Notes under the pieces: generated by a model | The model's input: only the letters and a program-made list of their open reading frames with translations | Told to the model about the DNA's origin: nothing | Databases searched by the model: none | Part shown: in pieces, positions 3,714 through 52,427 of the stretch | Layout: each line of letters opens with the position of its first letter | How positions within the stretch are numbered: the stretch's first letter is position 1 | Position numbers and translations under genes: made by a program | From: Candidatus Anderseniibacteriota bacterium | GTDB lineage: Bacteria > Patescibacteriota > Andersenbacteria > UBA10190 | Length of the DNA: 64,000 nucleotides | NCBI GenBank assembly: GCA_021414205.1 | Contig: JAIOOW010000002.1 | Location: 340,171 to 404,170, forward strand | Direction: 5' to 3'

Positions 3714-3719
3714 ATGCAA

Positions 3720-4172: not shown

Positions 4173-4296
4173 AAATAACAGTTATATATAATATTTTTAC
4201 TATACACCGAATGCCCTTTGCGGCTATATAAAAACCCCACAAGCAGTGCGCGCCTATGGGGCAGAATAAATACCAATGCGTTTACGAAGCAAGGCC

Positions 4297-6988: not shown

Positions 6989-7009
6989 AGAGTTAAATAC
7001 TGAGTTCTT

Positions 7010-7465: not shown

Positions 7466-7489
7466 ACAGAATATGGTAGCACAGGGGAT

Positions 7490-7918: not shown

Positions 7919-7934
7919 AAGTACTTATAATATA

Positions 7935-7954
7935 TTAGTTGATTAATCAAGTAT
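7935..7954. promoter_or_regulatory. Near-palindromic candidate MarR operator in the divergent promoter region
   Basis: ttagttgattaatcaagtat is a near-perfect inverted repeat. It lies between marR (-) and the DHFR-like gene (+). Confidence 0.25.
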
Positions 7955-8016
7955 ATTGCAAATAATAAGTAGTGTCAAGAAGAACAACCAGCCCCTGTGA
8001 TACAATGTAAGTCATT

Positions 8017-8574
8017 ATGCGAACGCTCTACTTATTTATGATGATATCCCTAGATGGATACTTCGAAGGAAAAAACCATGACCTCTCTTGGCACAATGCG
8101 AATAATGAGGAATTTCAAAATTTTGTAGCCAAACAAAATGCCACTATCGACACCATTCTTATGGGAAAAACTACGTACGAAATGATGCGAGATTTTTGGC
8201 CTAGCGAAGATGCACAAACTACCGATCCCCTTACTGCAGAGTTTATGAGTACAACAAAAAAATATGTATTCTCTCATGAGCCGTACGAACCGAAATGGGA
8301 AAATGCAGAAACAATACATGAAGATATCAATGTTCGCGTACAAGCCCTAAAAGAAGAGCCCGGCAAAGATATCGCTATTTTTGGAAGCAATATACTCGCA
8401 GTCTCTTTAATGGAAGCGGGGCTCGTAGACGAATTTCGTATCATGATAAATCCAATCGCAATAGGCGCGGGTACTCCACTATTTCACGGAATCACCAAAC
8501 CACTACAGCTTAGCCTTACCGCAACAACTCAGTTTCAATCCGGAAATGTATTGACAATATACAAGAATACGTAA
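8017..8574 (+). CDS. Dihydrofolate reductase family protein (RibD C-terminal domain), second paralog
   Basis: MRTLYLFMMISLDGYFEGKNHDLSWH; paralogous to the gene at 3111-3713. Confidence 0.7.
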   Translation: MRTLYLFMMISLDGYFEGKNHDLSWHNANNEEFQNFVAKQNATIDTILMGKTTYEMMRDFWPSEDAQTTDPLTAEFMSTTKKYVFSHEPYEPKWENAETIHEDINVRVQALKEEPGKDIAIFGSNILAVSLMEAGLVDEFRIMINPIAIGAGTPLFHGITKPLQLSLTATTQFQSGNVLTIYKNT

Positions 8575-8591
8575 AGCCTCTTGATATCGCT

Positions 8592-8897
8592 TTAGATAAC
8601 CTTAGAAATCAGTAGCACTAATACAACTGCAGTAAAAATTGCGAAAATACCAATCGTACGAACAAAAAGATTTACTGCCTCTTTTTTCTTTCCTTCCATG
8701 AACAGTAGAAGCGGCTGATACAAAAAAAGGTATGACATTACAGCAGCAGAAAGAGTAAGTAGCGACAGGAATGCAACGGGTGCGCCAATCGTATCCGGCG
8801 TATCTTTAAGTTTTTGTGATAAGAAATTAATAACACCAACAACAAGAACGATGTACCCCGCGGCGCTTAGCGCATTAATAAGAGGTTTTTTGAACAT
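8592..8897 (-). CDS. Small membrane protein (3 TM)
   Basis: Hydrophobic 101-aa ORF. Confidence 0.4.
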   Translation of the reverse strand: MFKKPLINALSAAGYIVLVVGVINFLSQKLKDTPDTIGAPVAFLSLLTLSAAVMSYLFLYQPLLLFMEGKKKEAVNLFVRTIGIFAIFTAVVLVLLISKVI

Positions 8898-8904
8898 AGA
8901 GTAA

Positions 8905-9333
8905 TTATATGCCTAAAGAACATTCGATGATCCACTCAATACCATACTTATCTCTGAACATACCGGCATACGTACCCCACGGACTCTCCCCCATAGCCCC
9001 TTCTACATTTCCTCCGGCAGAAAGACCATTAAATAATCTATCCGCCTCTTCTTTGCTGTCAGTGCTTATTAAAATTTTACTCCTGTTCTCGTTTTCATTT
9101 ACTTTCCCCATCACCTCCGGGACATCGTTTGCAATCAATACGCTTCCCTCACTAATGGGCAATGCAATATACATAATTTTATTCTCTTCTTTTTCTGGCA
9201 CCGGAAATTCAGCGCTCGCCAGATCTTTGAACCGGATAATTTTTGTAAACTCACCGCCAAAGACTGATTTATAAAATGTAAACGCTTCTTCGGCATTGCC
9301 GTTAAAATTAATCCAAGGGTTTATTGTTGTCAT
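8905..9333 (-). CDS. VOC family protein (PhnB-like glyoxalase/bleomycin-resistance fold)
   Basis: NPWINFNGNAEEAFTFYKSVFGGE at the N-terminus is characteristic of PhnB-like VOC proteins. Confidence 0.65.
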   Translation of the reverse strand: MTTINPWINFNGNAEEAFTFYKSVFGGEFTKIIRFKDLASAEFPVPEKEENKIMYIALPISEGSVLIANDVPEVMGKVNENENRSKILISTDSKEEADRLFNGLSAGGNVEGAMGESPWGTYAGMFRDKYGIEWIIECSLGI

Positions 9334-9399
9334 ACGCCCATACTATCAAATGAACTTCATTTAATAAAGCGTTCCGGATCACTAATTTGATACAATTAA

Positions 9400-9609
9400 T
9401 TAAATCTCAGGAGCAGCTTCCCATTTAGGCTTCATCTCTGCACCCCATTTTTGCGAATCCGCTGCATGCATCTTCTCCATGTCTTTTGCAACATCAGGGT
9501 GGTTTTCCATTACATGAGTCGTCATTTTGCCAACCATTTCATCCCACGACTGAGCTGTTAACTCCTTGTCACAAGTTCCTCCCAACTCTTTACAAATCAT
9601 TTTTTTCAT
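9400..9609 (-). CDS. DUF1059 family small protein
   Basis: MKKMICKELGGTCDKELTAQSWDEMVGKMTTHVMENHPDVA matches the DUF1059 pattern (MxxxxCxDxGxxCD). Start taken at the internal Met. Confidence 0.5.
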   Translation of the reverse strand: MKKMICKELGGTCDKELTAQSWDEMVGKMTTHVMENHPDVAKDMEKMHAADSQKWGAEMKPKWEAAPEI

Positions 9610-9738
9610 ACCAAGTAGTATTAGTGATAATACTTGCACTGTACAAACACAGGAACAAAGACGAAAGGCTTTTCAATAAACCTCAGAAACGTTTCACACC
9701 GCGAAGTGGAGGGGGCAAGAACCTGTTTTTGCTTATGC

Positions 9739-10944
9739 ATGAATATATATTATAGTTCCCTTGTGATTTCTCTCACCAAATCCACTTTTTATAATGACGT
9801 AGATACGGCTCAGAAGTTATCTTCGTTCGTACTCTCGGCTAAGCAGCTAAGTTTTGGAGAGCAGTGTAATAAGTTCGAAGAACAGTTTGCACAATATCAG
9901 GGTCGAAAGCATTGTGTTTTAATGAACAGTGGTAGTTCTGCAAATCTTGCCCTCATTCAAGCGTTACGCAATATAGGAAAAATCAAGTTGAACGATACGA
10001 TTGGATTTTCTGCTGTGACCTGGTCCACAAATGTCATGCCCATAATTCAGCTTGGACTTGCAGCTGTACCGATCGATATTGAGCTTGATACATTGAATAT
10101 TTCACCCCAGACGATTCGCAAGGTATTGGAAACTACCTCTCTGAAGGCTATTTTTTTAACGCATTTGCTGGGATTTTGTGACGACCTCCAAGGTATTCGA
10201 GAACTGTGTGCCCAAGAAAAAATATTACTTATTGAGGATACTTGTGAGGCTTTGGGGTCAGTCTATCATGGGAACAAGTTGGGGAATTTTGGAATTGCTA
10301 GCACATTCTCTTTTTATGTGGGTCATCATTTGTCAACAATTGAAGGAGGGGCCGTATGTACTGATGATGATGAATTAGCGACTATGCTTCGTATAGTTCG
10401 AGCCCATGGCTGGGATCGTAATCTGCCTTCTGCTGAACAGAGTGCTATCCGTCAGCAACACAGTCTTAACTCTATCTTTGAATCAAGGTATACATTTTAT
10501 GATTTGGGATTCAATCTTCGTCCAACGGAAATAACGGGGTATCTCGGTACGATTCAGTTGCCCTATATTCACGAAATTATTCAAAAGCGTAATCAGAATT
10601 TTATTCGCTTGGCACCAGCAATCTATGAACAAACAGATAAGTATTATCCGTTGCACTATGACCACATTGACTTGGTATCAAATTTTGCAATTCCAATAGT
10701 TTGCAGAACTCGTAAACAGCGCGACTTATTGGTGTCTGCATGCAACGAGCGAATTGAAATTAGGCCTATTGTTGGTGGAAATATTGCTTCTCAACCGTTT
10801 TTCTGCAAATATGTGCCGGAATTTTCTCAATCATTCAAAAACTCGAATGCTTCTATCATACATGATCAAGGTTTATATTTCGGCAATAACCCGCTTTTGA
10901 CTGAAATAGAGCTTCAGGAATTACATCAAGTTTTTGCAGGATAA
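9739..10944 (+). CDS. DegT/DnrJ/EryC1/StrS-fold sugar 3-dehydratase (E1/DdhC-RfbH or ColD type), PLP-Lys replaced by His
   Basis: Fold-type I aminotransferase motifs are present, but the Schiff-base Lys position reads SFYVGHHLSTIEGG (compare RfbH SFYPAHHITMGEGG). Start chosen at MNIYYSS. Confidence 0.65.
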   Translation: MNIYYSSLVISLTKSTFYNDVDTAQKLSSFVLSAKQLSFGEQCNKFEEQFAQYQGRKHCVLMNSGSSANLALIQALRNIGKIKLNDTIGFSAVTWSTNVMPIIQLGLAAVPIDIELDTLNISPQTIRKVLETTSLKAIFLTHLLGFCDDLQGIRELCAQEKILLIEDTCEALGSVYHGNKLGNFGIASTFSFYVGHHLSTIEGGAVCTDDDELATMLRIVRAHGWDRNLPSAEQSAIRQQHSLNSIFESRYTFYDLGFNLRPTEITGYLGTIQLPYIHEIIQKRNQNFIRLAPAIYEQTDKYYPLHYDHIDLVSNFAIPIVCRTRKQRDLLVSACNERIEIRPIVGGNIASQPFFCKYVPEFSQSFKNSNASIIHDQGLYFGNNPLLTEIELQELHQVFAG

Positions 10945-30633: not shown

Positions 30634-32790
30634 ATGAAAAAACAAGAAATTACTATTAAAGAATACTTAGCCCAGAAAGGGGTTGAGTTTCAGGAACGTG
30701 GCGGCGAGCTTATCACTGCCTGCTTATTCAACGGCTGCGACGATGACAGTAGAACCAATGAACGGCATCTATACTTTAATGCTGAGGATGGGGTCTACCA
30801 ATGCAAAAAGTGTGACGAACGAGGCAATATCATAAGCCTGCGAAAGTACTTTGGAGATGAGCAGGAAAAGCCATCCACTACAAAACCAAAGTCACAACAT
30901 GGTCCCCGATTTACTGACATCCTTGTAAGCCAATCTCACGAAGCAATGCCAGATAACATACGCCAATACCTTAACAAGCGAGGTATCCCTGATACGGTTA
31001 TAGCAGATAGTAAACTGGGCTATGGCAATTTTTACGGCAAAAACTGGATTACGATTCCCATTAAAGACGAGACAGGTGAATACGCATATTTCAAATTACG
31101 ACAGGACCCTAATGAAGGAAATGAAAAGATAACATACCCTAAAGGTGAGGCTCAAATTTATGAGTGGGATACTCTTAAGCGTACTGACGCTCCTTTGATT
31201 ATTTGTGAGGGTGAATTGGACCGCCTACTGCTAGTTGGCAAAGGTGTGAACGCTATCACTTCTACTCACGGAGCAGGCACGTTTAAGCAAGAGTGGGTAC
31301 CCCAGCTTACGGCTTTTCAGAAAATCTATGTCTGTTTTGACCAAGACGAACCAGGGCAAAAAGGAGCCGAGCGAGTCGCTAAGATGTTAGACAATGCTGG
31401 AATTACTGAAGTTTATTTTGTGACCTTACCAGACGAAGTTGGTGAGGGAGGAGATGTAACAGACTATTTCACTAAGTTCGGCGGCACTGTTGATGACCTG
31501 CTCGGCAAATACGCTAAGCGGTATCCCGAACGAATTGACTCTACCCAATTTCAACCAATGACCACCGCTGACTTAAATGCAGTATTGGGATTGACCATCA
31601 AAAAAGACGAGGTAAATAAGGCAGTGACATTTCAGTGTATGCTATCCGCCTTTACCGAAAACAACCAGTTCAACATCAGCTTTAATGCTCCCAGCTCCAC
31701 AGGCAAAAGCTACATCCCCTTGGAAGTATCCACGCTCTTTCCCGCAGACGATTTAATGAAACTAGGCAATGCCAGTCCGACTGCTTTCTTTCACGAACGA
31801 GGTGATTATGACAAAGAAAAGAATACGATTACGGTGGACCTATCCCGAAAAATCATTGTCTTTCTTGATATGCCCAACAATGCCTTATTGGAACGCCTAC
31901 GGTCCCTTTTGTCACACGACGAAAAGATGATTGAGAGCAAAATCACTGACAAGAATCAGAAGGGCGGCAACCGTACTAAGACAGTGATTATTAAGGGTTT
32001 CCCTGCGGTAGTATTCTGTTCGGCAGGCTTAAAAATTGATGAGCAAGAAGGAACCCGCTTTATACTCCTTTCCCCAGAGATAAGCCAAGACAAATTGCGT
32101 GAGGGTATAAACCAGCGACTGCGAAAGGAATCTAACGAACAAGAGTTTCGGGAGTGGCTAGGGAGCGATCCAACTCGCCAATTGCTAAAGTTGCGCATAC
32201 AAGCTATCAAACAAGAAAAAATCGCCGAGATTATTGTGCCAGACGATGAGAAAGAAACTATCCGTCAGTATTTCTTAGAGGGTAAGGACGTTTTGAAACC
32301 ACGTCACCAAAGAGACATTGGCAGGTTGATTGGACTAACCAAAACCTTTGCCCTTCTTAATTGTTGGTTTCGTCAGAGAAAGGGAAGAACCATATACGCC
32401 ACAATGGATGATGTGCAAGAGGCTACACGCCTATGGGATAAGATTGCAGAGAGCCAAGAGCATAATCTTCCTCCTTATGTCTATGACCTATACAAAGACG
32501 TGATATTGCCCGCCTGGAAGGAAAAGAATGAGGATAAAGTAATGCCAGATGAATGGGTAGGTGTGAGCCAGCAGGAGATTATGCGTAAGCACTATACGGC
32601 TTATGGTACGCATCTTGCCGAATGGCAACTGCGGCAACAAATCCTGCCGATGATAGAAACAGCGGGACTGATTATCCGAGAGAAAGATGACAAGGACAGG
32701 CGGCATATTCTTGTCTGCCCCACCCTCAAACTCAATATCAATGAAAGCGAGGAATATAGTGAGCCACCCCGTGGGGTAACAGATAAATAG
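30634..32790 (+). CDS. Mobile-element replication protein: zinc-ribbon + TOPRIM primase fused to C-terminal P-loop NTPase domain
   Basis: N-terminal CxxC...CxxC (ITACLFNGCDDD...YQCKKCDERG), TOPRIM core (LIICEGELDRL...VCFDQDEPGQKGAE), then Walker A-like NAPSSTGKSY and hhhhD (KIIVFLDM). Confidence 0.65.
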   Translation: MKKQEITIKEYLAQKGVEFQERGGELITACLFNGCDDDSRTNERHLYFNAEDGVYQCKKCDERGNIISLRKYFGDEQEKPSTTKPKSQHGPRFTDILVSQSHEAMPDNIRQYLNKRGIPDTVIADSKLGYGNFYGKNWITIPIKDETGEYAYFKLRQDPNEGNEKITYPKGEAQIYEWDTLKRTDAPLIICEGELDRLLLVGKGVNAITSTHGAGTFKQEWVPQLTAFQKIYVCFDQDEPGQKGAERVAKMLDNAGITEVYFVTLPDEVGEGGDVTDYFTKFGGTVDDLLGKYAKRYPERIDSTQFQPMTTADLNAVLGLTIKKDEVNKAVTFQCMLSAFTENNQFNISFNAPSSTGKSYIPLEVSTLFPADDLMKLGNASPTAFFHERGDYDKEKNTITVDLSRKIIVFLDMPNNALLERLRSLLSHDEKMIESKITDKNQKGGNRTKTVIIKGFPAVVFCSAGLKIDEQEGTRFILLSPEISQDKLREGINQRLRKESNEQEFREWLGSDPTRQLLKLRIQAIKQEKIAEIIVPDDEKETIRQYFLEGKDVLKPRHQRDIGRLIGLTKTFALLNCWFRQRKGRTIYATMDDVQEATRLWDKIAESQEHNLPPYVYDLYKDVILPAWKEKNEDKVMPDEWVGVSQQEIMRKHYTAYGTHLAEWQLRQQILPMIETAGLIIREKDDKDRRHILVCPTLKLNINESEEYSEPPRGVTDK

Positions 32791-32842
32791 GGAAAATTAG
32801 CGCAAATTAGTACATAATCCTTAATAATTTCGGCAAAATTCT

Positions 32843-33529
32843 ATGAGCAACACATCACCAAAACAAATAACGGCTAACCAACAAAACGCCCAGAAAAGTA
32901 CTGGACCAAAAACTCCTGAAGGGAAAGCTGTTTCCAAGAACAACGCCCTTAAGCACGGACTACTGACACGAGACATGGTATTACCAACAGAAGATGCGGA
33001 AGTGCTAACGGAGCTAACTACGGAGGTATGGAAGGAATTACAGCCTGTTGGTCAACTAGAGCAATTTTTAGTTGAGCGCATTGTCGCAAATATGTGGCGT
33101 ATTAAAAGGTTGCACCGTATTGAGACAGGGTTATTTACCACTGAAAGCGTGGACCAGCTTGCGGGACGTATTCGTGGTCAGGCACGAGAATTTGAACATA
33201 AAGAGTCTCTGTTTCCGAATTTGGAAATGGAGACAACAACCATTACTGACGAGAAAAAACACGCCGAGATAATCGCTAAAGCCGAAGCACTGGAAAAGAC
33301 GTGGGATTCAGACATTACCAGTATAAGTAGTGCCTTTCGGAGCGATGCCGTAGACAATGACGTACTGGCAAAAATAATCCGTTACGAAGTTTCTCTGGAG
33401 CGTAGCTTCACTAAGGCTTTACATGAACTGCAACGCTTACAAGCCAAGCGAAATGACGATACGACACCCCCTCCTGTCGCCGTTGATATTGATATTTCAG
33501 GTGATAAACCAAATGGGTTCGTTTCGTAA
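32843..33529 (+). CDS. Hypothetical protein
   Basis: 228 aa, helical; no family recognised. Confidence 0.35.
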   Translation: MSNTSPKQITANQQNAQKSTGPKTPEGKAVSKNNALKHGLLTRDMVLPTEDAEVLTELTTEVWKELQPVGQLEQFLVERIVANMWRIKRLHRIETGLFTTESVDQLAGRIRGQAREFEHKESLFPNLEMETTTITDEKKHAEIIAKAEALEKTWDSDITSISSAFRSDAVDNDVLAKIIRYEVSLERSFTKALHELQRLQAKRNDDTTPPPVAVDIDISGDKPNGFVS

Positions 33530-33670
33530 AATATATCGTAGAAAACCGATATTTTCCGATATATCAGGTATAAACGGTCAATATAGGCAAAAGAGGTCAG
33601 TTTATGAAGCATTTTCCGTGCAAATCAACGCACAATCTTTAATAATTTCGGCGGAATAATTACCAACACT

Positions 33671-34267
33671 ATGGCACGAGCAAAAGCGGAAACATCTAAC
33701 TCACTCAAAATATCTTGGCTTAAAAAACAAGGATATTTTCCAAAAGGAGAATCTTGGCGTAGCGGTAATGTTACGTGGACTCTTGGTATGAGCGAGAATA
33801 AAAGTAGCATCGGCATTGATATTACGGCGGGCATGACCGAGGAAGAAAACTATATCCGACTGCACTACACTTATACGGACTACTGGACCAAAGAGAAGTC
33901 AGATATGAACTATAAGATTCAACTGGAAACCACACCCTGTCATTTTGGTGGCGTGCGTTATTGGTTTATCTGTCCTCTATCCAAGAATGGCCAATATTGC
34001 GGACGACGAGTGGGAGTTATTTACAACATCGGCAAATGGTTTGGCTGCCGTCATTGCGGAGATATTGCCTATCAAGCCCAGTTTGAGGGTGGCAACTTCC
34101 GTATGGGTTCAGTTACCGAACCAGATGTTGAAAAAGCATTCAGTGAAGCAAAAACTCACTACTATAACGGCAAGCCGACAAGAAAATATAAACGCTACCT
34201 AAGACTACGGCAAAAGATGAATAATTCATGGATTCGAGCGGCTTCAAGGTTTGGCAATATCTTCTAA
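33671..34267 (+). CDS. Hypothetical protein with C-terminal Cys-rich zinc-ribbon-like motif
   Basis: CHFGGVRYWFICP...CGRRV...CRHCGD. Confidence 0.35.
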   Translation: MARAKAETSNSLKISWLKKQGYFPKGESWRSGNVTWTLGMSENKSSIGIDITAGMTEEENYIRLHYTYTDYWTKEKSDMNYKIQLETTPCHFGGVRYWFICPLSKNGQYCGRRVGVIYNIGKWFGCRHCGDIAYQAQFEGGNFRMGSVTEPDVEKAFSEAKTHYYNGKPTRKYKRYLRLRQKMNNSWIRAASRFGNIF

Positions 34268-34285
34268 TAATGGCATTATGAACAC

Positions 34286-34392
34286 GTTGACCCAGTTGAA
34301 GATTAAACCCGTGAGATTTTTTTATAGGCTTGTGGGCTGCAAAGGGCGGTCTGCCAGAAGCCTATCCTCACGGAAAAAGCAACTGGGTCAAC
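34286..34392. repeat. 107-bp imperfect palindrome (nested inverted repeats) upstream of the recombinase gene
   Basis: Outer arms gttgacccagttg / caactgggtcaac (13 bp, perfect). Inner pairs ccgtgag/ctcacgg and ataggctt/aagcctat. Confidence 0.4.
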
Positions 34393-34422
34393 CAGACCGT
34401 CCTTTTATGTTGATAAATTACT

Positions 34423-36150
34423 ATGATTGACCCAAAAATTGTTCAAAAAAGCTATATCTGCACTTACGCTCGTAAGTCCGAAGAGGACAAGTATAAGCAG
34501 GTCCAGTCTATTCCCGACCAGCTCAAAATCAATCAACAGATTGCAGATTTTCACGAAATAAAAATTCCTGCCAAGCATGTGTACATGGAAGAAATGTCCG
34601 CGGGTGAACCTGGCAGACCAGTATTCAACCAGCTCATAGAAACAATACAAAAGAACACTCATACAATTCTCGTCTGCTGGCACTTTAATCGTCTAACACG
34701 TAACCCAATAGACGAAGGAGTACTCAAATGGTTATTACAGAAAGGCAAGCTAACCATCATTACCCCCAATCAAGTCTTTGATCAAAATACCAACGTCATT
34801 ATCACATCAGTTGAAGGAGCGCAGGGCAATCAATTTCTTATTGAATTAAGCCGCAACGTAATACGTGGCTTAAATTCTAAGCGAGCAAAAGGTGTTCCCA
34901 GTGGCGTAGCACCTGCTGGATACCGTAACGGTGGGACCGAGAAAGGCAATAAATGGTTTGAGCCAGATGATGGAGACCCGAATCGCTTTCTGCTAGTTCA
35001 AGATGCACTCAAGCTAGTCATAAACGGAATAGAACCAATGGACGCTTTCCGCAGATTAAATGACGATTGGAAATTCCTGACAATTAAAAGAAAGAGACAC
35101 GGTGGGACTCCTATCTCAAAATCTGTATGGTACGAGATGCTAAGAAACCCTATCTACTGCGGACAATTTATTGCACTTGATGAGTGGCATGAAGTTAAGG
35201 ACCCTCATTTCAAGCCAATGATTACGGAAGAAGAATATTGGGAGCTGCAATCAAAACTAGGAGTTAAGGGACGGACAAGACCAAAGCTACAAGATGAAGA
35301 GCAAGCTGCCTTTTTACAAGCTCTAACCTGTGGCGAGTGTGGCAATAAAATGAGTCGGGATCGTAAACGACAGATACGCTGTCTCTGTAAGCATAAATAC
35401 AGTGCCTTGCATCGTGATACTTGCCCCATGTGTGGTCTTCATGAATCAAAGGTCCCGTCTGATCGCAAACATACCTATGACTTCTATTTCTGTCCTACGG
35501 GCAAGAAAAAGCAGTGTTCTCAACCAACTATCCCTACAGAGGCAGTAGAAAGCCAAATTGCCACTGTCCTTGATAGCGTTAGCATCCCCCAAGAATTTAT
35601 TGACTGGGCTATGGCTTACCTGGAAACGAAAAACGATGAGGTAATTGTTAGCCGAGAGGCTAGACTGCAATCTTTGCAGAAGGCTTATAAAGAAAGTGAG
35701 GAAGAATTGAATCGCATGAACCGTTTATACATAAAGGGCGGTTTTGAGCACGAAGGTGGCGATGAGGAGTATCAAAAAATGAAACGGGAGCAACTCTCTA
35801 AAAAGAAAGCACTGCAAAAACAGTTGAGCGAATTTGATACCTCTGGTGATAATTGGAGAGAGCGAACGGAGGGAGGGTACGATTTCTGTAAAGAGGCACT
35901 GACTGAATTTACACTCGGAAGCTACCGAACCAAGCGTGGCGTCCTACTTCATATCTACCAAAAAGCCACTGTGCAGGCAGATAAGGTCCGAATAGACATA
36001 GAGCTACCATTCCAATTCATGAAAAATAAGATGCATAACCTTAAGACCAAGTTTGGACTTACCGAACCAGGCAAAATTGAAGAATTGTTGAGAGATACGG
36101 GCAAACAAGAGGATATTGATGCCGTAAAAAAGTTTTGGCTCCCCGGGTAG
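34423..36150 (+). CDS. Large serine recombinase (resolvase/invertase N-domain + recombinase domain + zinc ribbon)
   Basis: Catalytic-Ser motif YARKSEEDK, then FNRLTRN (DRLxR equivalent); CGECGNKMSR zinc ribbon; coiled-coil C-terminus. Stop codon overlaps the tRNA-Asn 3' end. Confidence 0.75.
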   Translation: MIDPKIVQKSYICTYARKSEEDKYKQVQSIPDQLKINQQIADFHEIKIPAKHVYMEEMSAGEPGRPVFNQLIETIQKNTHTILVCWHFNRLTRNPIDEGVLKWLLQKGKLTIITPNQVFDQNTNVIITSVEGAQGNQFLIELSRNVIRGLNSKRAKGVPSGVAPAGYRNGGTEKGNKWFEPDDGDPNRFLLVQDALKLVINGIEPMDAFRRLNDDWKFLTIKRKRHGGTPISKSVWYEMLRNPIYCGQFIALDEWHEVKDPHFKPMITEEEYWELQSKLGVKGRTRPKLQDEEQAAFLQALTCGECGNKMSRDRKRQIRCLCKHKYSALHRDTCPMCGLHESKVPSDRKHTYDFYFCPTGKKKQCSQPTIPTEAVESQIATVLDSVSIPQEFIDWAMAYLETKNDEVIVSREARLQSLQKAYKESEEELNRMNRLYIKGGFEHEGGDEEYQKMKREQLSKKKALQKQLSEFDTSGDNWRERTEGGYDFCKEALTEFTLGSYRTKRGVLLHIYQKATVQADKVRIDIELPFQFMKNKMHNLKTKFGLTEPGKIEELLRDTGKQEDIDAVKKFWLPG

Positions 36151-36210
36151 GATTCGAACCTACGACCATCGCCTTAACAGGGCGTTGCTCTGCCGCTGAG
36201 CTACCAGGGA
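36136..36210 (-). tRNA. tRNA-Asn (anticodon GTT), CCA encoded
   Basis: Folded by hand. Acceptor TCCCTGG/CCGGGGA (one G-U), D-arm GCTC/GAGC, anticodon loop CTGTTAA with U33 and A37, T-arm GTAGG-TTCGAAT-CCTAC, discriminator G, then CCA. Confidence 0.8.
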
Positions 36211-44802: not shown

Positions 44803-45411
44803 TTAACATCCGCACTTCCAAGCATTCCCAACTTTTCTGCATACATTTGGGCAGAATGTGGGACGGGGAGTTGGGTCGCTAATAGGAGTTATTGTCGGAC
44901 TAGGCGTTGGATCGCCTGTATGAGGAAGCGTAATAGAAACGTTGCAACTCGAAGGAGTGTAGTATCGCAGACTTCCCAACTTCATCCATCCAGAACCGGA
45001 GCGTACCCATCCACCCAAAAAGTCCGCTCGAACAGTACTACTACCTCCGTCGCTCCGCACAATATACCGACTTTCGGCAACACCAGCATTGTTCGTAATG
45101 GCAATCGTAGGATTTACAAATCCAACAGAACTATTTGTAGACCATACAATGCGCAAGCTATTTAGCTGCTCAGCAGATAGCGTCATTCCTGGAGCAGACA
45201 CCGTGGCCCGAACCTTTCCATCAGCAAACGAACAATCAAGTTTTGTTGTAATTTTTGCTTGAGTAATAGGCCTATTATCATGATACGCAGTCAGCGATAA
45301 CGACCCACTGTAAAACGTAACTAAAAATATTGCGACAGCAGCCAACGCGAGCGCAGTGCCCACCATCCATACTTGCTTCGTATTTTTTTGTTTATTTTTT
45401 GAACGCTTCAT
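44803..45411 (-). CDS. N-terminally anchored cell-surface protein with Cys-rich C-terminus, paralog of the gene at 48128-48622
   Basis: TM anchor, shared TKLxCSxAxDGxV segment, PT-rich tail ending CPNVCRKVGNAWKCGC. Confidence 0.45.
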   Translation of the reverse strand: MKRSKNKQKNTKQVWMVGTALALAAVAIFLVTFYSGSLSLTAYHDNRPITQAKITTKLDCSFADGKVRATVSAPGMTLSAEQLNSLRIVWSTNSSVGFVNPTIAITNNAGVAESRYIVRSDGGSSTVRADFLGGWVRSGSGWMKLGSLRYYTPSSCNVSITLPHTGDPTPSPTITPISDPTPRPTFCPNVCRKVGNAWKCGC

Positions 45412-45510
45412 GTCGGGTACTATAAAAAATTATTACAATCATTATACCACAAACAAAACACAAACCCCGCCTAAGGAGGCGGGGTGAGGTTCTTGTATTG
45501 AATTCCCTAA

Positions 45511-46584
45511 TTAGCCGAGGATTGCTTTTCGTACTACGAACGCAAGTCCAGATCCGCTAAATAGTGTAGAGAAGAGAAGTGTAGCAACTCCCTCGGCACC
45601 AGTCTTAGCAGTTACAGGAACTGCCTGCGGCGCTTGCTGGATTACTACAACCGGAGTCGGAACAACAACTACTGCAGAGGCAACCTTTCCTTTTGATACT
45701 GTCTTTGTAACAGTCTGCGTGTTGTTTTGTGTAACATTCACATCACCAGTATTGCTCTCGCTCTTGTTTTCGCTTGAGTTATTAGAACTGTTGTTCACGT
45801 TCAAGGAGATATTGTTATTGTTGATGTTGCAGTTCACGTTTGTGTTCTCAGCTACTACGAACACTTTCCCGTCTGTACACGTAACGGTAACCATTGTTGG
45901 AGTTGGAGTAGGTGTAGGTGTCGGAGTTGGCGTAGGAGTTGGAGTCGGTGTAGGTGTCGGAGTTGGTGTAGGAGTAGGAGTAGGAGTTGGAGTAGGTGTT
46001 GGAGTTGGTGTAGGAGTAGGAGTTGGAGTAGGTGTAGCGCATCCAGATCGATTCACCCATGTGAAGTCGTAAATTTTATGGTTACCTACTGCTCCATAGT
46101 TTTCTCCAACAGTCCATAATGTAGTTGAGGTGCAAGCATTAAGAGACGGAAGAATAAATGTTCCAGAAATATTTAACGTGTAATGAGATCGGTCATCACA
46201 TCGGAAACAGATCTTTCCCTGGCTCCATGTTTTCTGATCAAGCAAATGCCATTCTCCAGTATTTCCTACTGAAGATACTTTTCCTCCTGCAATATGCTCA
46301 TATACCTTAAGTGACGCAGAAGCTGGTTCGTTTCCACAGTTAATCCAGCTGTATCGAGCATCATACTGAACAGTGTTCGTAGAAACAGTTGAATCGTGCT
46401 GAGGAGACGCTACGAATAAATCTGGCGTGTACTGAGGATTAGTATCCGTTACGATCTGCTGGATACCGTTCGCATCAGCGTCTTTAGAAAAATTAATAAC
46501 AAACGCAAAACCGCTAAGAACAATAAGTGTTCCTAGGAGTACTGGCGCTGTCCAACGAGATAATTGTGCTTTGTTCATATACAA
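45511..46584 (-). CDS. Cell-surface protein: globular domain + (TP)n linker + Asn-rich region + C-terminal VTAKTG-TM-RK anchor/sorting signal
   Basis: Paralog of the gene at 48646-49668. C-terminus ...[35 protein letters not shown]. Confidence 0.55.
45895..46040. repeat. Hexanucleotide tandem repeat (about 24 units) encoding (Thr-Pro)n
   Basis: ggagttgg/agtaggtgt-type units repeat throughout this stretch. Confidence 0.6.
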
Positions 46585-46744
46585 GAATTCCTCTACTTAA
46601 TAATTAAACTAACCTGCTATCGTATCTGATTTAGTATTTCTTGTCAAGTATTAAATCGTACTATATGTCAATAACTTATTATTTACCTCTATTAAGCTAT
46701 TATTTTGCAATGACATTCACTGCAAAGTATGATACAGTACGGGC

Positions 46745-48067
46745 ATGAAAAACATCCTTATAAGCGCTCTAGCAATCCTACTAGCCGCATGCACGGCCCA
46801 ATTCGCGCATGCCCAAACTGACGCTCAATCGATTATCGCATCGGCAGGAAATCAAGGTTCGCTATTATCGAGAATTTATGCCTCCGATGCAACAATAACC
46901 TCCTCACCGAATGATCATCACGTAACTGGCACAGTTCTCATCCGGAATAGCGAGAGCGCGACTGTCGGAAATATCCAATATGAAGTCATGTTGCTATCCC
47001 CTCTTCCACAAGCGCCGATAAATCAGCTTGTTACAGACTCGCCTGACGTATATGACAGGGTCCGATCCACGGAGGTACTTACATTAAAAGCAGGTGAGAA
47101 ACGAACAATTCCATTTTCTTACGAAGCGCCGAATGTACCGCAAGGTTCATACAGAATTAGAATCCAAATTGTTACCACAAACGACAGAAAACTTGGCTGG
47201 GACGATGCAACAGTCACGCTTGGAGGCGCCGATAGCTTTCTTATAGTCACCCCCACACACGTACTGGTAAAAAGTTCTGACCCTATTACGAAAGAATCGG
47301 GATCAACATGGGATCCTCTGTATGGAGTAAACGTAGACCCTCGTGCGCAAATCCAATTTGAGACAATCCTCAAAAATACGGGGACGCAGCAATTGTCGGG
47401 AACAATTATAACTAGCACAAAGAGGCTTCTTTACTCAGACCAACCACAAGACGTGGTAAATGAGCAATCAATCGCTATTCCAGGCAATACATCAAAGACT
47501 GTTACAATCCCCATCACAACCGAATCAAAGCCTGGCGCATACATCATATTATTAACAGTGGAAGATAAAGCGCATCATAAAATATCCGGTGTAGGAGAAT
47601 ACCGATACGTTGTACGAGGGCAAACAGCTTCTATCGTATCCGTTCAAGTTGCATCACTTCCATCGATAGAAAAAGATCTTGCTCAGCTTAGTTTCGTTCT
47701 TGGCGGATCCGCCGATCGCGCAACTCCCGTAGAAGGAACGCTTGCAATCGAAATCAATGACTCTAAAGGACAAGTAGGTTCTGCGGAGCAAGCATTTTCA
47801 ACAACCGGCGCAACGCCAATTACTGGAACAGCTCAGGTTACGATGCAAAAAGTATTATGCGGCACACCAACTGTACATATCTCCCTGAAAGCCAAGGACG
47901 GATCATTGCTCGATTCGTACGTAACAAGTGCTCCTGCGTTTGCAAACCCCTCCTGTAAACCATCTATTGCAACATACTTCACAAAGCCTGTTATAAACAC
48001 ACTTCTTGGAGTAATAGCCTTGGTCATTGTCGGCGTACTAATCAGAATACGCGTCACCCAGAAATAA
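46745..48067 (+). CDS. Secreted/anchored surface protein, paralog of the N-terminal half of the 857-aa protein
   Basis: Signal peptide; shared block with the 857-aa protein (...PQGSYRIRIQIVTTNDRKLGWDDATVTLGG versus SEGQYRIRLQIITNNGNEYGWDDAAITLG); C-terminal TM helix + basic tail. Confidence 0.5.
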   Translation: MKNILISALAILLAACTAQFAHAQTDAQSIIASAGNQGSLLSRIYASDATITSSPNDHHVTGTVLIRNSESATVGNIQYEVMLLSPLPQAPINQLVTDSPDVYDRVRSTEVLTLKAGEKRTIPFSYEAPNVPQGSYRIRIQIVTTNDRKLGWDDATVTLGGADSFLIVTPTHVLVKSSDPITKESGSTWDPLYGVNVDPRAQIQFETILKNTGTQQLSGTIITSTKRLLYSDQPQDVVNEQSIAIPGNTSKTVTIPITTESKPGAYIILLTVEDKAHHKISGVGEYRYVVRGQTASIVSVQVASLPSIEKDLAQLSFVLGGSADRATPVEGTLAIEINDSKGQVGSAEQAFSTTGATPITGTAQVTMQKVLCGTPTVHISLKAKDGSLLDSYVTSAPAFANPSCKPSIATYFTKPVINTLLGVIALVIVGVLIRIRVTQK

Positions 48068-48127
48068 TCGCCCATAACAAATCCCGGCTATTGCGCCGGG
48101 ATTATGCTGTTACAAAATGTATATTTA

Positions 48128-48622
48128 TTATTTTCCGCTTACTTGAGCTTCGCACGTTGCTGGATCGTACGTAACCGTAGCAAACGAACTCGAACCATCT
48201 GCAGATTTAGACTCTACGCTAAAGACATCTCCATTAAATGATGCAGTTGCGTTCGACGTGGTTGAAGCCGTAACTTTTGTTTGCGTCATGCCGTTAGCAT
48301 CTGTCACAGAAGATACCGGGAAGACAGTACCAGCAGAACTTGGCACGGCCCAATTAATAGTCTCACCCTTTAACACGCTTCCGTTTGGTAGTGACAGGGA
48401 GTTTCCATTTGTATTAGCTACAGAAAGCACTGCCGAGACCGTACCGTCGGCAGCCACGGAGCATGCGAGCTTAGTTGCTACTTTGCCATCCGAACCCGTA
48501 TACGATTTCGTGCCAAGCAACCCTCCGTACGAGGACGCTAAGTAGATAAGCACTATTGCCACAACTACTCCCCCTGCTATCATCAAATTTCTATTATTAT
48601 TTTGTGCGTTCTTTTTTGCCAT
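48128..48622 (-). CDS. N-terminally anchored cell-surface protein (paralog of the gene at 44803-45411)
   Basis: TM anchor + shared TKLACSVAADGTV segment; Ser/Thr-rich body. Confidence 0.45.
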   Translation of the reverse strand: MAKKNAQNNNRNLMIAGGVVVAIVLIYLASSYGGLLGTKSYTGSDGKVATKLACSVAADGTVSAVLSVANTNGNSLSLPNGSVLKGETINWAVPSSAGTVFPVSSVTDANGMTQTKVTASTTSNATASFNGDVFSVESKSADGSSSFATVTYDPATCEAQVSGK

Positions 48623-48645
48623 ATGAATATATTAATAGTAATAAT

Positions 48646-49668
48646 TTAGCTCTTCATTTGTTTTCGAATCGTATACGCTAACCCAAGACCGCCCACGGCA
48701 ACCAACCCAACAACTGCTGCAACACCTTCCGGACCAGTCTTAGCCGTAACATGAACAGGAGCGATAGTTGGTACTGGCGTTGGAGCAATCGTAGGTACTA
48801 CGGCAACTTTCTTTGTAACAGTCTTTTTAACTGTCTGAGTGTTCGTCTGTGTAACATTTACATCCCCAGTAGAACTTGAGCTGGAGTTAGAGCTGGAGTT
48901 ATTCGAGCTGTTATTAACACTTACGTTAATAACATTGTTTATATTATTACAATTAATATTATTGTTTGTTGTCGTGATTGTAATTTCTTTATCACCATCG
49001 ATACACGTTATTTCTGTAGGCGTCGGCGTTGGAGTAGGTGTCGGAGTCACAGTTGGAGTAGCACTCACTGTCGGGGTTGCCGTTGGAGTGCCTGTGGGAG
49101 TAGGCGTCGGCGTTGGAGTAGGTGTCGGCGTAGCGCATCCTGCCATATTCAACCACGTAAAGTCGTAGATAATTGCCTGGCGCCAAGACCCTTGAGTACT
49201 TGCGAGCGTCCAAAGAGTCGTAGATCCGCAAGCTTTAAGAGAATTGAGTGTAAATGTTCCCGTCAAGTTAAGCTCCAGAGGTTTTCGTTCGTCACATTGA
49301 TGACAACGCTTACCCTCTGATATAGCTTGCTGCCCCAGCTGTTTCCATGTACCAGAATTTGAAGTAACCTTACCGCCACCGTCTCGTTCGGAAACTCTTA
49401 ACAGCGCATTAGTAGGCTCGTTTCCGCAACTAATCCACGTAAATCGTGCCGCATATTTTACTACATTCGTAGTCAGCGTTGCATCATGTTGCGGAGAAGA
49501 CACAAACAACGTCGGACGCGCCTGTTGATTAGGATCCGTCGTGCTGTCATTAATTAATATAATTTGCTGTACTCCGTTTGCTTGTGCCGCATGCGTACCG
49601 TTCAACACGAAGGCAAACAATCCGACCAAAAGCAATAACGCGGACAGATATGTGAATGATTTATTCAT
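48646..49668 (-). CDS. Cell-surface protein with TP-rich linker, poly-Asn/Ser region and C-terminal VTAKTG-TM-RK signal
   Basis: Paralog of the gene at 45511-46584. C-terminus ...HVTAKTGPEGVAAVVGLVAVGGLGLAYTIRKQMKS. Confidence 0.55.
   Translation of the reverse strand: MNKSFTYLSALLLLVGLFAFVLNGTHAAQANGVQQIILINDSTTDPNQQARPTLFVSSPQHDATLTTNVVKYAARFTWISCGNEPTNALLRVSERDGGGKVTSNSGTWKQLGQQAISEGKRCHQCDERKPLELNLTGTFTLNSLKACGSTTLWTLASTQGSWRQAIIYDFTWLNMAGCATPTPTPTPTPTPTGTPTATPTVSATPTVTPTPTPTPTPTEITCIDGDKEITITTTNNNINCNNINNVINVSVNNSSNNSSSNSSSSSTGDVNVTQTNTQTVKKTVTKKVAVVPTIAPTPVPTIAPVHVTAKTGPEGVAAVVGLVAVGGLGLAYTIRKQMKS
49018..49135. repeat. Degenerate hexanucleotide repeat encoding PT-rich linker
   Basis: ggcgtcggcgttggagtaggtgtcgg-type repeats, less regular than those at 45895-46040. 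Confidence 0.5.
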
Positions 49669-49853
49669 AATTCATAATGAAAATAAACTATCTAATAATC
49701 TACAGATTATTATACCACAACTTCTTCATTTTCGATCATCAAACAAGAGCCAAACCAATAAAAGAATGACAGCAATCACTACAATTCCAGATACAATAGT
49801 CGGGATGCTTGCGGGATCCTCCAAATGCTCAGCAACTATTTCCCACACCATCC

Positions 49854-52427
49854 CTATCTTGTTTCCTGAAAGTTACCTGAGCCGAACGTTGGAGTCGCGC
49901 TTGGTGAAGCAGACGTCGTTGGATTTGGCGTTGGCGTAGGAGATCCCTTTGCAACAACAGTCACAGAAACTGTTCCGTTATTTGACTGCGCACCGGCTGC
50001 ATCCGTAATCCTGAGTAACTTATATGTATACGTACCAGGAGCATCATTGAAGGTGAGTGTCCCCAAGCTAATCTGACACGCAGCTGGGCCAGACGGATCA
50101 GCGATTGTTGTTTCGAACGTTGGAGCGCCTTGATTGAGATCTGAATTCCATTCGCACTTTCCGCCTTGAGATATTCCCTTGCTAGGTGTTGTCCATCCAT
50201 CGGGGTCCGAGCTTCCGTTTGCAGAAAGCTTAATAGAGACTGGAGTACCCTGCTCTACCGTAATACTGGACCCGAACGCGCCGTTTCCTGCACTAATACT
50301 TGCAACGCTCACCGGAGGATTATTTCCGCTTACAGGAGTTGTTGTTGGCGTTGGAGAAACGGTCGGAGTCGGAGTTGTTGTAGAAGTTGGGGTCGGCGTA
50401 GGTGTTGGATTTGTTGTAGAAGTTGGGGTCGGCGTAGGTGTTGGATTTGGAGTAGGCGTTGCAGGAATCTTAAAGTTAACCCAAGTGTACATTGCTTGGA
50501 TTAGTTGGAAATGTTCCCTCTCCCCGACCGAATCATACCCAACACGGAATATCCATAGTAGCGTAGCCGAGTCGTACGCATTCGAAACAGAAACATTGCC
50601 CGTAAAACTTACAGCAAGGGTACAATTCTGAGATCCGCTGCAACGCGTAAATGGATAGGCGTTGTAAACCAAGCGATCAAATGCACCGTTTGTCTTGTTA
50701 GCAGCATAATTTTGATAGGTGTCCCAATTCAATCCGCTTGGAGAATTTAACACAAGGTATGATCTAGTGCCGGACTGGTTTCCAACAGTTTCTGCTCTAA
50801 TAGCAATAGATCCGCCCAATGCAGCTTTTCCGCCGCTGCGAAGATTATATACATACACCTCAGGCGACGTTACCTTATTGTTACAAGTTCCATAATAGAG
50901 AACAAAGCTAACGGGAATTTTTCCAGGATCCGCAGGTTCTGTCACTACATTATTATTATGGAGCGGCTTATTTATTGTTGCGTAAATCGTGTACTTATCC
51001 CCAGGCTGAGTAACTCCAGCAATAACAATCCCATTCGCTGCGCGAGTATCTTTGGTGAAGCTACCCGCTACCAAAAGCGATGCCCCAGTCCCTATAATGA
51101 GAAGTAGCAATGGAATAATCGTCTTCTTTGCCTGTAATTTTTTATATCTCATCCAACCAAGGAGTCCAAGCAATGCGCAGATTACTGCGCCACCCACAAT
51201 ATAGATTGTTGCGCCAATATGCTTTGCGACGGGCTGAACAGAAGGCGTAGCGTATGGGGTAACAACTGCTTGTTCCGCAACATATGGAACATGAACTTCG
51301 TATTGATCAAGTTGCCCATTTGTATCACTATTTATTAACTCGATACGAAGCCCGGGATTCTTCAATGGTGTATTAAATGAAAATGTTGCATTACCGGCCT
51401 GTAATCCATTCTTACCCAAATCAGGAATAGTGGTGGTTTCTTCTTGCAGTACAGTATCGCCATCCAACAAAGAAACTTTAACGCCGGTATTCACCGAGGT
51501 TACCCCGTCTGCAGGGCCGGCAAGCTGGAACTGAATATTTGCGCCAGTACCCGTAAGGCTCAAGAAACTTCCCGTAACGACTCGTGCCGTGACACCAGTC
51601 ACAACCCAGCGATATTGATTCATGGAAGAAATAATATTCCCGGCAGCATCCTGAAGCACTAAGGTAGCTTGATACGCTCCTGATTCCGCAGAAACGGTAA
51701 TTGGAAACGTTCCCGCAAATGTTTTATTTGAAGCAATTGTCACAGGAGGCAACTTTTCCGTTGAGACAACCTTTCCTGTTAGATCAAATGCATACGTGGT
51801 CAACACAGGAATCGCCGTCATTGCCTTGCTAGTTGAGACCTTTGCACCATACGACGCCGTCACCGTTGAGCTCGGATCAACATTCACGCCATCAAGCGGA
51901 CCGCTTGTAACACCCTTAACCGTAATAGGTCCCGGAGCAAGGAACGCAAACTGCGCATCCTTTGAACCTAAGGTGATCGCAGCGTCATCCCACCCGTATT
52001 CATTCCCATTATTTGTAATAATCTGCAATCGAATACGATATTGTCCTTCAGATAATTTTGGAGGGGTATACGTAAACGGAATTGTCATCTTCTGATTTGG
52101 CGAAAACTCATACTCTCCAGGAAATACCACTCTATCTAAAACTCGAGCAGTATCAGGAACGATAGTATTAGGAGTTGTTACTTCGGGAGCAGGATCAAGC
52201 AATAGTGCCTGCAATCGAATTCCGCCGAACGCAGCATCGTTATCGTTCTGCACATCAACACTCCCCTGGACCGCTCCCGTAGTAGAATCTTGGGCAATTA
52301 ATTTCACCCCAACATTAAACGATGGATTAACCCACGCCTTTGAATTCAAATCAGCGTTTTGAGCCAACGCGAACCCAGGCGACAATAATACTAAAAACGA
52401 CGTAATACCTGCGAGAATTTTTTTCAT
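49854..52427 (-). CDS. Large (857 aa) secreted surface protein with beta-rich domains and PT/TP-repeat C-terminal region
   Basis: Signal peptide, repeated beta-domain blocks, internal TM-like segment, [12 protein letters not shown] repeats. Confidence 0.55.
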   Translation of the reverse strand: MKKILAGITSFLVLLSPGFALAQNADLNSKAWVNPSFNVGVKLIAQDSTTGAVQGSVDVQNDNDAAFGGIRLQALLLDPAPEVTTPNTIVPDTARVLDRVVFPGEYEFSPNQKMTIPFTYTPPKLSEGQYRIRLQIITNNGNEYGWDDAAITLGSKDAQFAFLAPGPITVKGVTSGPLDGVNVDPSSTVTASYGAKVSTSKAMTAIPVLTTYAFDLTGKVVSTEKLPPVTIASNKTFAGTFPITVSAESGAYQATLVLQDAAGNIISSMNQYRWVVTGVTARVVTGSFLSLTGTGANIQFQLAGPADGVTSVNTGVKVSLLDGDTVLQEETTTIPDLGKNGLQAGNATFSFNTPLKNPGLRIELINSDTNGQLDQYEVHVPYVAEQAVVTPYATPSVQPVAKHIGATIYIVGGAVICALLGLLGWMRYKKLQAKKTIIPLLLLIIGTGASLLVAGSFTKDTRAANGIVIAGVTQPGDKYTIYATINKPLHNNNVVTEPADPGKIPVSFVLYYGTCNNKVTSPEVYVYNLRSGGKAALGGSIAIRAETVGNQSGTRSYLVLNSPSGLNWDTYQNYAANKTNGAFDRLVYNAYPFTRCSGSQNCTLAVSFTGNVSVSNAYDSATLLWIFRVGYDSVGEREHFQLIQAMYTWVNFKIPATPTPNPTPTPTPTSTTNPTPTPTPTSTTTPTPTVSPTPTTTPVSGNNPPVSVASISAGNGAFGSSITVEQGTPVSIKLSANGSSDPDGWTTPSKGISQGGKCEWNSDLNQGAPTFETTIADPSGPAACQISLGTLTFNDAPGTYTYKLLRITDAAGAQSNNGTVSVTVVAKGSPTPTPNPTTSASPSATPTFGSGNFQETR
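50376..50447. repeat. Perfect 36-bp tandem duplication inside the 857-aa gene
   Basis: gttgtagaagttggggtcggcgtaggtgttggattt occurs twice back-to-back; on the coding strand it encodes [12 protein letters not shown] x2. Confidence 0.7.

Follow-up and report, generated by a model that had tools for sequence, protein, structure and literature searches.

Bacteria of the Candidate Phyla Radiation (CPR), or Patescibacteria, live attached to other microbes, and their surface proteins, which form the interface of that lifestyle, are mostly unannotated. We analysed a stretch of 64,000 nucleotides (hereafter 'the window') from an ultra-small Candidatus Anderseniibacteriota bacterium (contig JAIOOW010000002.1, positions 340,171 to 404,170), in which positions 44803–52427 are occupied by a cluster of six genes for predicted surface proteins. 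Two of these proteins, of 340 and 357 amino acids (aa), end in a common C-terminal tail comprising a V-T-A-K-T-G motif, a hydrophobic segment and a basic end, which we consider on balance to be a variant sorting signal for a sortase. An earlier reading of the window from its letters alone (the sequence-only reading) had listed six open reading frames (ORFs) in the cluster, and all six are present in the ORF list of the window. The features are as follows:

44803–45411, minus strand: ORF for the 202-aa small Big_1-like protein, partner of the 357-aa protein, with a Cys-rich C-terminus
45464–45485, minus strand: terminator-like hairpin just 3' of the 357-aa gene (nine pairs, seven of them G-C, then a T-rich tract)
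45511–46584, minus strand: ORF for the 357-aa tail-bearing surface protein, a paralogue of the 340-aa protein with identical module order
45514–45621, minus strand: candidate sorting signal of the 357-aa protein, VPV-TAKTG (TAKTG at 45598–45612), 22 hydrophobic residues and RKAILG
46745–48067, plus strand: ORF for the 440-aa protein, predicted from an AlphaFold2 (AF2) model to be C-anchored with three immunoglobulin (Ig)-like domains
48128–48622, minus strand: ORF for the 164-aa small Big_1-like protein, partner of the 340-aa protein and paralogue of the 202-aa protein
48646–49668, minus strand: ORF for the 340-aa tail-bearing surface protein, with a modelled head domain
48649–48756, minus strand: candidate sorting signal of the 340-aa protein, VHV-TAKTG (TAKTG at 48733–48747), 22 hydrophobic residues and RKQMKS
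49854–52427, minus strand: ORF for the 857-aa protein, a fusion by sequence comparison

The 440-aa gene is the only one of the six on the plus strand and is convergent with the 164-aa gene. According to the sequence-only reading, the cluster consists of two duplicated cassettes, each with a small protein and a Thr-Pro (TP)-linker protein, and a 440-aa protein paralogous to the N-terminus of the 857-aa protein. Pairwise comparison upholds these relationships: the 357- and 340-aa proteins share 54% identity over 167 aa (E 2e-57), the 202- and 164-aa proteins 27% identity (E 2e-11), and the 440-aa protein and the N-terminal half of the 857-aa protein 32% identity over 346 aa (E 6e-41). The TP, poly-N and poly-S runs are likewise present in the cassette proteins, and the TP linkers are tandem repeats in the DNA, at 45895–46037, 49097–49131 and 50335–50461.

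The 340-aa protein is built, in order, from a signal peptide (...HAAQA/NGVQQ, the slash marking its end), an Ig-like head of ~150 aa, the TP linker, a two-Cys module of the form ITC...NINCNN, a stalk that is rich first in Asn and Ser (poly-N/S) and then in Lys, Val and Pro, and the C-terminal tail. Judged by eye, the signal peptides of the 340- and 357-aa proteins are of the Sec type, with a basic n-region and ~20 hydrophobic residues, ending AQA/NG or ADA/NG; an AF2 model of a tail protein has a helix at residues 4–21 and then a disordered junction where the signal peptide ends. The mature start N-G-[IV]-Q is conserved directly after the signal peptide in the head family (the ANGI family). 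The head domain itself is modelled as an all-beta Ig-like sandwich with a predicted local distance difference test (pLDDT) score of 83.6, and a Foldseek search with the model returned generic Ig-like matches only, the top ones to repeat domains of adhesins from Gram-positive bacteria. Relatives of the head are few. An exhaustive HMMER search with the ~185-aa N-terminal part returned only 15 representatives among 1.84 billion proteins, a word-indexed search for the head domain among 5.8 billion proteins returned no match, and an alignment of six head sequences used as query led to two genome loci only. The short relatives P0001, P0002, P0003 and P0011 carry the same tail as the window proteins. 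The long relatives (P0005–P0010, P0012 and P0014) consist of a 440-like ectodomain, a transmembrane (TM) segment, a short loop, a second hydrophobic segment and the head domain; in 9 of the 15 representatives the head is fused to a 440-like protein.

The tails, which the sequence-only reading gave as (V/H)VTAKTG(A/P)EG followed by a hydrophobic helix and a basic tail, are found on both TP-linker proteins, in the form (P/H)VTAKTG(A/P)EG with a hydrophobic segment and RK behind it, one of the two ending in ...IAPVHVTAKTGPEGVAAVVGLVAVGGLGLAYTIRKQMKS directly before the stop codon. In both, the motif is followed by 22 uncharged residues with a mean Kyte-Doolittle hydropathy of 1.5–1.6, and then by RK and four further residues. 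A six-frame scan of all 64 kb finds TAKTG within 50 codons of a stop three times, and only at these two tails is it the end of a long ORF; no other long ORF of the window has such an ending. Ten distinct tails were compared, namely the two in the window, those of P0001, P0002, P0003, P0011 and P0016, and one from each of the metagenomic loci L005, L006 and L009. The comparison reveals the motif to be longer than given in the sequence-only reading: its full form, V-[PH]-V-[TS]-A-K-T-G, varies little or not at all among the ten. Within it V, V, A, K, T and G are the same in every tail and position -3 is Pro or His; numbered as a sortase substrate, P4 (position -1) is Thr in eight tails and Ser in two, never Leu, and Ala at P3 does not vary. 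The hydrophobic segment has 22 residues in nine tails and 24 in one, with a mean hydropathy of 1.1–1.85, and it closes on a conserved Gly-rich pattern, [GS]-G-[SL]-G-[LMV]-[ATV]-[YFW]-x-[IVL] (the GGSGLAY type). The pair [RK]-K lies 27–32 residues past the Gly of the motif, with 3–8 more residues behind it. Since ten distinct tails share these properties, the tail in the window is not a coincidence of two copies.

Three different protein architectures carry the tail. In the window and in L009 it follows an ANGI head, a two-Cys module (ITC...ITT.N.NINCNN) and a poly-N/S stalk. An unrelated head precedes this stalk and the tail in L005 and L006: these proteins have no similarity to the window protein in the head and 51% identity over the C-terminal 122 aa. 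In P0002 and P0011 the stalk is absent, and the tail comes straight after a DUF11 domain. DUF11 domains, like SpaA domains, are characteristic of proteins anchored by sortases. Portability of this kind is as expected of a sorting signal.

We also scanned the ends of ORFs in ~230 kb of CPR DNA for the general form x[PA]x[TS][GASN] followed by a hydrophobic segment and basic residues. The scan returned the V[TS]AKTG tails together with the homologous tail of P0004, a relative from Peribacteria, which reads ...SAPATSGSG... and scores 14.6 bits on the LPXTG_anchor model TIGR01167 at the equivalent position, below the cut-off of 15.9. Two further rows were judged spurious, one being an overlapping frame in L008 and the other the non-hydrophobic C-terminus of a 565-aa protein in L002, a locus described below. 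No canonical LPXTG tail was found at the ORF ends in these ~230 kb, and none of the viral contigs scanned contained the V[TS]AKTG tail. The 202-aa protein has an internal LPHTG (44920–44934), which we regard as a chance match because no hydrophobic segment follows it and it is not conserved, a relative of 92% identity having LPHTV; the sequence behind it is a Pro/Thr-rich, Cys-rich C-terminus.

A sortase gene directly adjoins a tail gene in two contigs, which were reached from opposite starting points. L005 was found by scanning metagenome contigs of the Joint Genome Institute (JGI) with the tail alone; of the three loci returned, it is the only one with sequence downstream of the tail gene. 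The tail gene occupies 1339–2337 on the plus strand, and 63 bp downstream lies a convergent ORF for a 285-aa sortase, which scores 69.7 bits on the Pfam Sortase family PF04203 (cut-off 26.6). L009 is the contig that encodes P0019, a sortase 72% identical to that of L005. Here the sortase gene (3659–4351, plus strand) is followed after 70 bp by a convergent gene for a 439-aa ANGI-family protein with a PVTAKTG tail, 22 hydrophobic residues and RK; a small Big_1-like protein precedes this tail protein. A gene for a CAP-domain protein is kept upstream of the sortase in L005 and not in L009, so the adjacency of tail and sortase persists in two surroundings.

At E<=1e-5 the L005 sortase is related to 238 proteins, several of which NCBI names 'class E sortase' and assigns to Ca. 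Andersenbacteria or 'Patescibacteria group bacterium'. In 24 aligned members of this clade the catalytic His (in AHS), Cys (in LMACWP) and Arg are invariant, and in alignments with solved sortases of classes A and C they coincide with the catalytic residues. The L005 sortase has class_E_sortase (NF033747) as its best NCBIfam model, with 50.4 bits where 160 are required; TIGR01076, at 37.8 bits for a cut-off of 39.35, is likewise missed, and only Pfam Sortase is passed. Matches of the clade in the PDB are weak (E about 1e-7), and among those listed the class C, D and A chains are at least equal to a single chain that we take to be class E-like. Because the class E score is below its cut-off and the weak PDB matches favour classes C and D, we describe the LMACWP proteins as a CPR clade of divergent sortases, the class of which is uncertain. 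A Tyr in the segment GAALYPNG, 17 residues before the catalytic His, is also invariant in the 24 members. It lies in the loop before that His and may be the counterpart of a class E Tyr, Tyr229 in the beta3/beta4 loop of SrtE1 (a protein not among the PDB matches), which has been proposed to read the Ala at P3 (PMC5148588). According to one survey, a sortase family is present in over half of CPR genomes (PMC6744442).

Compared with anchoring by the LPXTG/sortase system (TIGR01167, PF04203), the window proteins are alike in having a signal peptide and, ~30 residues before the C-terminal end, a motif ending in T-G with a hydrophobic segment and basic tail behind it, and in the presence of a PF04203 sortase with a His/Cys/Arg triad beside tail genes in two relatives. 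They are unlike in the motif itself, V-[TS]-A-K-T-G as opposed to L-P-x-T-G, and in the fixed length of the hydrophobic segment with its conserved GGSGLAY, while the active site of the CPR sortase reads LMACWP where TLxTC is canonical. The signal of class E sortases is LAXTG, in which P3 is Ala (PMC5148588). To this system, typified by Streptomyces SrtE1, the tail and its candidate enzyme are linked by the Ala at P3, a single 'housekeeping' sortase, the names given by NCBI and the best NCBIfam model; they differ in the Thr or Ser at P4 in place of Leu and in the score below the class E cut-off. The sortase B (SrtB) signal of Clostridioides difficile is (S/P)PXTG, and PVPPKTG is cleaved between T and G (PMC4155245). 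It resembles the CPR tail in a polar or small P4, Lys at P2 and the upstream context (PVPPKTG and PVPVTAKTG), whereas it keeps Pro at P3, its enzyme is of class B and the organisms are unrelated. On sequence, the tail motif combines two documented departures from LPXTG, the Ala at P3 of LAXTG and the polar P4 of C. difficile. We found nothing in the literature on TAKTG, SAKTG or VTAKTG as a sorting motif, on LPXTG in CPR, or on CPR sorting signals.

The other products of the cluster are taken to be conserved partners of the tail proteins on account of gene neighbourhood and gene fusion. The 164-aa protein has a basic and hydrophobic N-terminal anchor and one Big_1-like Ig domain, which reaches 29 bits on Pfam Big_1 (cut-off 34.9). 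The 202- and 164-aa proteins were both called N-anchored in the sequence-only reading, and their basic N-terminus, one hydrophobic segment and lack of an AXA site fit that description. The 440-aa protein is modelled by AF2 (pLDDT 84.4) as a signal peptide, three tandem sandwiches of the Ig or fibronectin type III (FnIII) kind and a C-terminal TM helix at 408–439, and its best Foldseek matches are the MG domains of alpha-2-macroglobulin and RbmA of Vibrio cholerae. A small Big_1-like gene adjoins the tail gene in L002, L005, L006 and L009, and a 440-like gene does so in L002 and L007. The 857-aa protein has a triple-Ig ectodomain of the 440 type and two TM segments, followed by a head domain that has diverged, a TP linker and a PKD-like region. 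Residues ~456–651 of its C-terminal half duplicate, in diverged form, the head of the TP-linker proteins, so that the two components of the cassettes are fused in this one protein. Gene fusion and repeated adjacency together indicate that the parts of the cassette are functionally tied.

Two short motifs were observed in these partners. The small Big_1-like proteins share S-Y-S-G-L-[LI]-G-[TA]-K directly after the N-terminal hydrophobic segment (window 48500–48622 and 45290–45411; L005 647–1123; L009 5770–6285; L006 163–290). In L006 the tail-bearing protein has this same N-terminus, which for that reason may be a special and possibly processed export signal, not a simple anchor. At the other end, the 857-aa protein terminates in GSGNFQETR (49854–49880) without a TM tail, and the long fusion relatives likewise end, with no TM segment, in a second C-terminal motif, [FL]-[ND]-P-[GE]-[GP]-[FV]-[QR]-[EV]-[TV]-[ED]-COOH, of which FNPGGVRVVE, FNPGPFQETD and LDPEGFQEVE are examples; its carriers are the window 857-aa protein, P0005–P0008, P0010, P0012, P0014 and the product ending at L002 9789–9815. 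It matches no signal known to us, and may be another C-terminal tag specific to CPR.

We judge it somewhat probable that the 340- and 357-aa proteins are sortase substrates with a variant sorting motif. Under this interpretation the precursors would be exported by Sec and held in the membrane by the hydrophobic segment and basic tail, until a membrane-anchored housekeeping sortase of the LMACWP clade cut between Thr and Gly of AKT/G and transferred the protein to a peptidoglycan precursor, which would result in covalent attachment to the wall. The stalk would then span the wall and present the Ig-like head, and the part of this surface structure nearest the membrane would probably be made up of the N-anchored 164- and 202-aa proteins and the C-anchored 440-aa protein. 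The proposal of the sequence-only reading that the tail is a non-canonical sortase-type signal is therefore retained in so far as it concerns the three-part anatomy, and it is extended by conservation in ten tails, occurrence on three architectures and the adjacency of sortase genes in two contigs; it is not borne out by the LPXTG model or by a sortase in the neighbourhood of the cluster. Cleavage, its position, linkage to the wall and the partnership are what we infer from these observations.

Several observations weigh against this interpretation. No sortase is encoded in the 64-kb window (ORFs of at least 150 aa) or in 10 kb beyond each end (L004 and L015), ~84 kb in total, nor in the 20-kb syntenic locus L002, which belongs to the relative of 92% identity. 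TIGR01167 gives no match to the full window proteins, nor to isolated tails at E<=10. Thr or Ser at P4 replaces a Leu that nearly all sortase signals keep, and the conserved GGSGLAY within the hydrophobic segment is unusual for such signals and could mean that the tail is just a membrane anchor inherited within one family. All tail carriers found belong to one loosely connected set of cassettes, and they are few; a profile of the tail, run against 5.8 billion proteins, added only one (P0016), but a 45-residue query is insensitive and cannot reach significance there, so that search is silent on abundance. As for the sortases, seven of the nine loci examined have no tail gene within reach and instead a conserved housekeeping context of ManC, YceG, a CAP-domain protein, in most cases a 58-aa protein, and the sortase. 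Finally, L005 and L009 share the local order of genes and cassette, and may therefore represent one ancestral arrangement, not two independent ones.

The same observations bear on another explanation, in which the tail would anchor the proteins in the membrane permanently by their C-terminus: the 340- and 357-aa proteins would be type I membrane proteins held by the terminal helix, with PV[TS]AKTG as an uncleaved juxtamembrane segment, for example a contact site for a partner. This would account for the lack of a sortase nearby and of a score on the LPXTG model; the 440-aa partner and the fusion proteins do use plain C-terminal or internal TM helices, and GGSGLAY within the helix is as might be expected of a helix with a lasting role. 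Such plain anchors of the 440-like proteins nevertheless have no motif of this kind, the invariant A-K-T-G immediately before a hydrophobic segment and an RK stop-transfer has exactly the geometry of a sorting signal, and a sortase gene lies directly beside the tail gene in two contigs. We consider a permanent anchor rather unlikely. The Gly-rich pattern raises a further possibility, in that a rhombosortase- or exosortase-like intramembrane protease might read GGSGLAY and process the tail independently of a sortase. A tail of ~38 aa conserved in its entirety as a homology domain, and rich in Gly, does resemble the style of PEP-CTERM and GlyGly-CTERM signals. Yet none of the NCBIfam sorting-domain models (GlyGly-CTERM, PEP-CTERM and others) scored any of five tails at E<=10 or matched the full proteins, and no rhomboid or exosortase gene was seen beside any tail gene, where the sole adjacent processing enzyme found is the sortase; we give this explanation very little credence.

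The cluster might also encode a pilus-like fibre, assembled by a sortase or by donor-strand exchange. According to a 2026 preprint, Pam pili of Saccharibacteria are assembled independently of sortase by donor-strand exchange, from two-domain Ig-like pilins, with C-anchored, PapD-like chaperones and an RbmA-like, C-anchored terminator (bioRxiv 10.64898/2026.03.03.709456). By analogy, the tail proteins would be subunits or the base of the fibre, and the 440-like protein of RbmA-like fold would be its membrane tether, as PamR is proposed to be the terminator and anchor of the pilus. Both systems are CPR clusters of Ig-like proteins with signal peptides, and the 440-aa protein, with tandem FnIII/Ig domains, RbmA-like Foldseek matches and a C-terminal TM helix, fits the description of PamR; the conserved N-G-[IV]-Q at the mature start and the adjacency and fusion of the cassette parts would also suit a fibre. 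Against this, matches of an Ig array to RbmA are generic, the pilins are described without a C-terminal sorting tail (the two systems being set against each other by description only), neither a pilin motif nor a second, pilus-specific sortase was seen, and no ATP-synthase genes, which neighbour the pam operon, flank the cluster or occur in the window. We consider a fibre of this kind improbable. A broader version of the sortase interpretation, in which the V[TS]AKTG tail would be the general signal of the CPR LMACWP clade, with substrates that present LPXTG models overlook, and the cassette of stalk, N-anchored Big_1 and C-anchored triple-Ig proteins, often fused, an undescribed CPR appendage for host contact, perhaps related to Pam fibres or forming their base, is quite doubtful, if a little less so than the fibre alone.

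Should the 340- and 357-aa proteins indeed be sortase substrates, then V[TS]AKTG followed by 22 hydrophobic residues and RK would provide a simple rule for listing wall-anchored proteins of CPR that the LPXTG model does not see, and a large and uncharacterised clade of sortases would be paired with a substrate motif. It would also add a sortase specificity, a polar P4 combined with Ala at P3, with possible use as an orthogonal tag for protein ligation. If the tail is only a membrane anchor, the cluster is an ordinary duplicated family of surface proteins.

Comparison with close relatives provides a view of cassette turnover. L002 (contig CAYVFG010000001.1) comes from the nearest species-representative genome, a metagenome-assembled genome with the unconfirmed submitter label 'uncultured Candidatus Saccharibacteria bacterium', and is syntenic with the window; the 340-aa protein has an orthologue of 92% identity there. 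The main difference between the closest tail proteins is the length of the TP linker, which is ~40 residues in the window 340-aa protein, ~42 in the L002 orthologue (342 aa) and ~8 in P0001, the head of which is 89% identical. In L002 an assembly gap within the TP repeat interrupts the orthologue of the 357-aa gene. In place of the window 857-aa gene (49854–52427), L002 has two genes, for 488 and 565 aa (6692–9815), which have only the PKD-like C-terminal part in common with it, ending GSGNF(Q/H)ETR; different genes at one position imply replacement of cassettes between close strains. The statement in the sequence-only reading that the family is expanding locally and evolving fast is accordingly supported in respect of TP-linker length and local turnover of cassettes, and not in respect of rate, because the comparison gives turnover only. 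Just upstream of the tail gene in L005 lies a 92-codon ORF (1056–1334) that encodes only a signal peptide joined to ~45 residues from the start of an ANGI-type head (...HIADANGITVQQ...) and then stops; it is probably a remnant from a swap of heads in front of the same stalk and tail.

Two other proteins of the sortase loci deserve mention. The 58-aa protein (MSELLVVASK...KRTTVKPQDV) is highly conserved and charged, and occurs in L008, L010, L011 and L014 (around 8300–10760); L012 and L013 have no called gene for it. It recalls SafA, a small sortase-linked regulator of Actinobacteria, but has no hydrophobic segment. The CAP-domain protein encoded upstream of the sortase in most loci was considered as a substrate and rejected, since it has two plain C-terminal TM helices and no TG motif.

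The surroundings of the cluster are those of an ordinary chromosome of a small-genome bacterium, with genes for GroEL, pyruvate kinase, DnaG, RpoD, glycogen synthase and phosphorylase, P-type ATPases and MscL, and identical copies of the window proteins are present only in the Logan assembly of SRR15633504. At 30634–36210 the window contains a group of genes consisting of a Toprim/primase-like gene (718 aa), two ORFs without a family match and a large serine recombinase (575 aa), the 3' end of which overlaps a tRNA-Asn gene (36136–36210, minus strand); this region looks like a mobile element integrated at a tRNA gene. A recombinase 32% identical to this serine recombinase is encoded near the sortase in L008.

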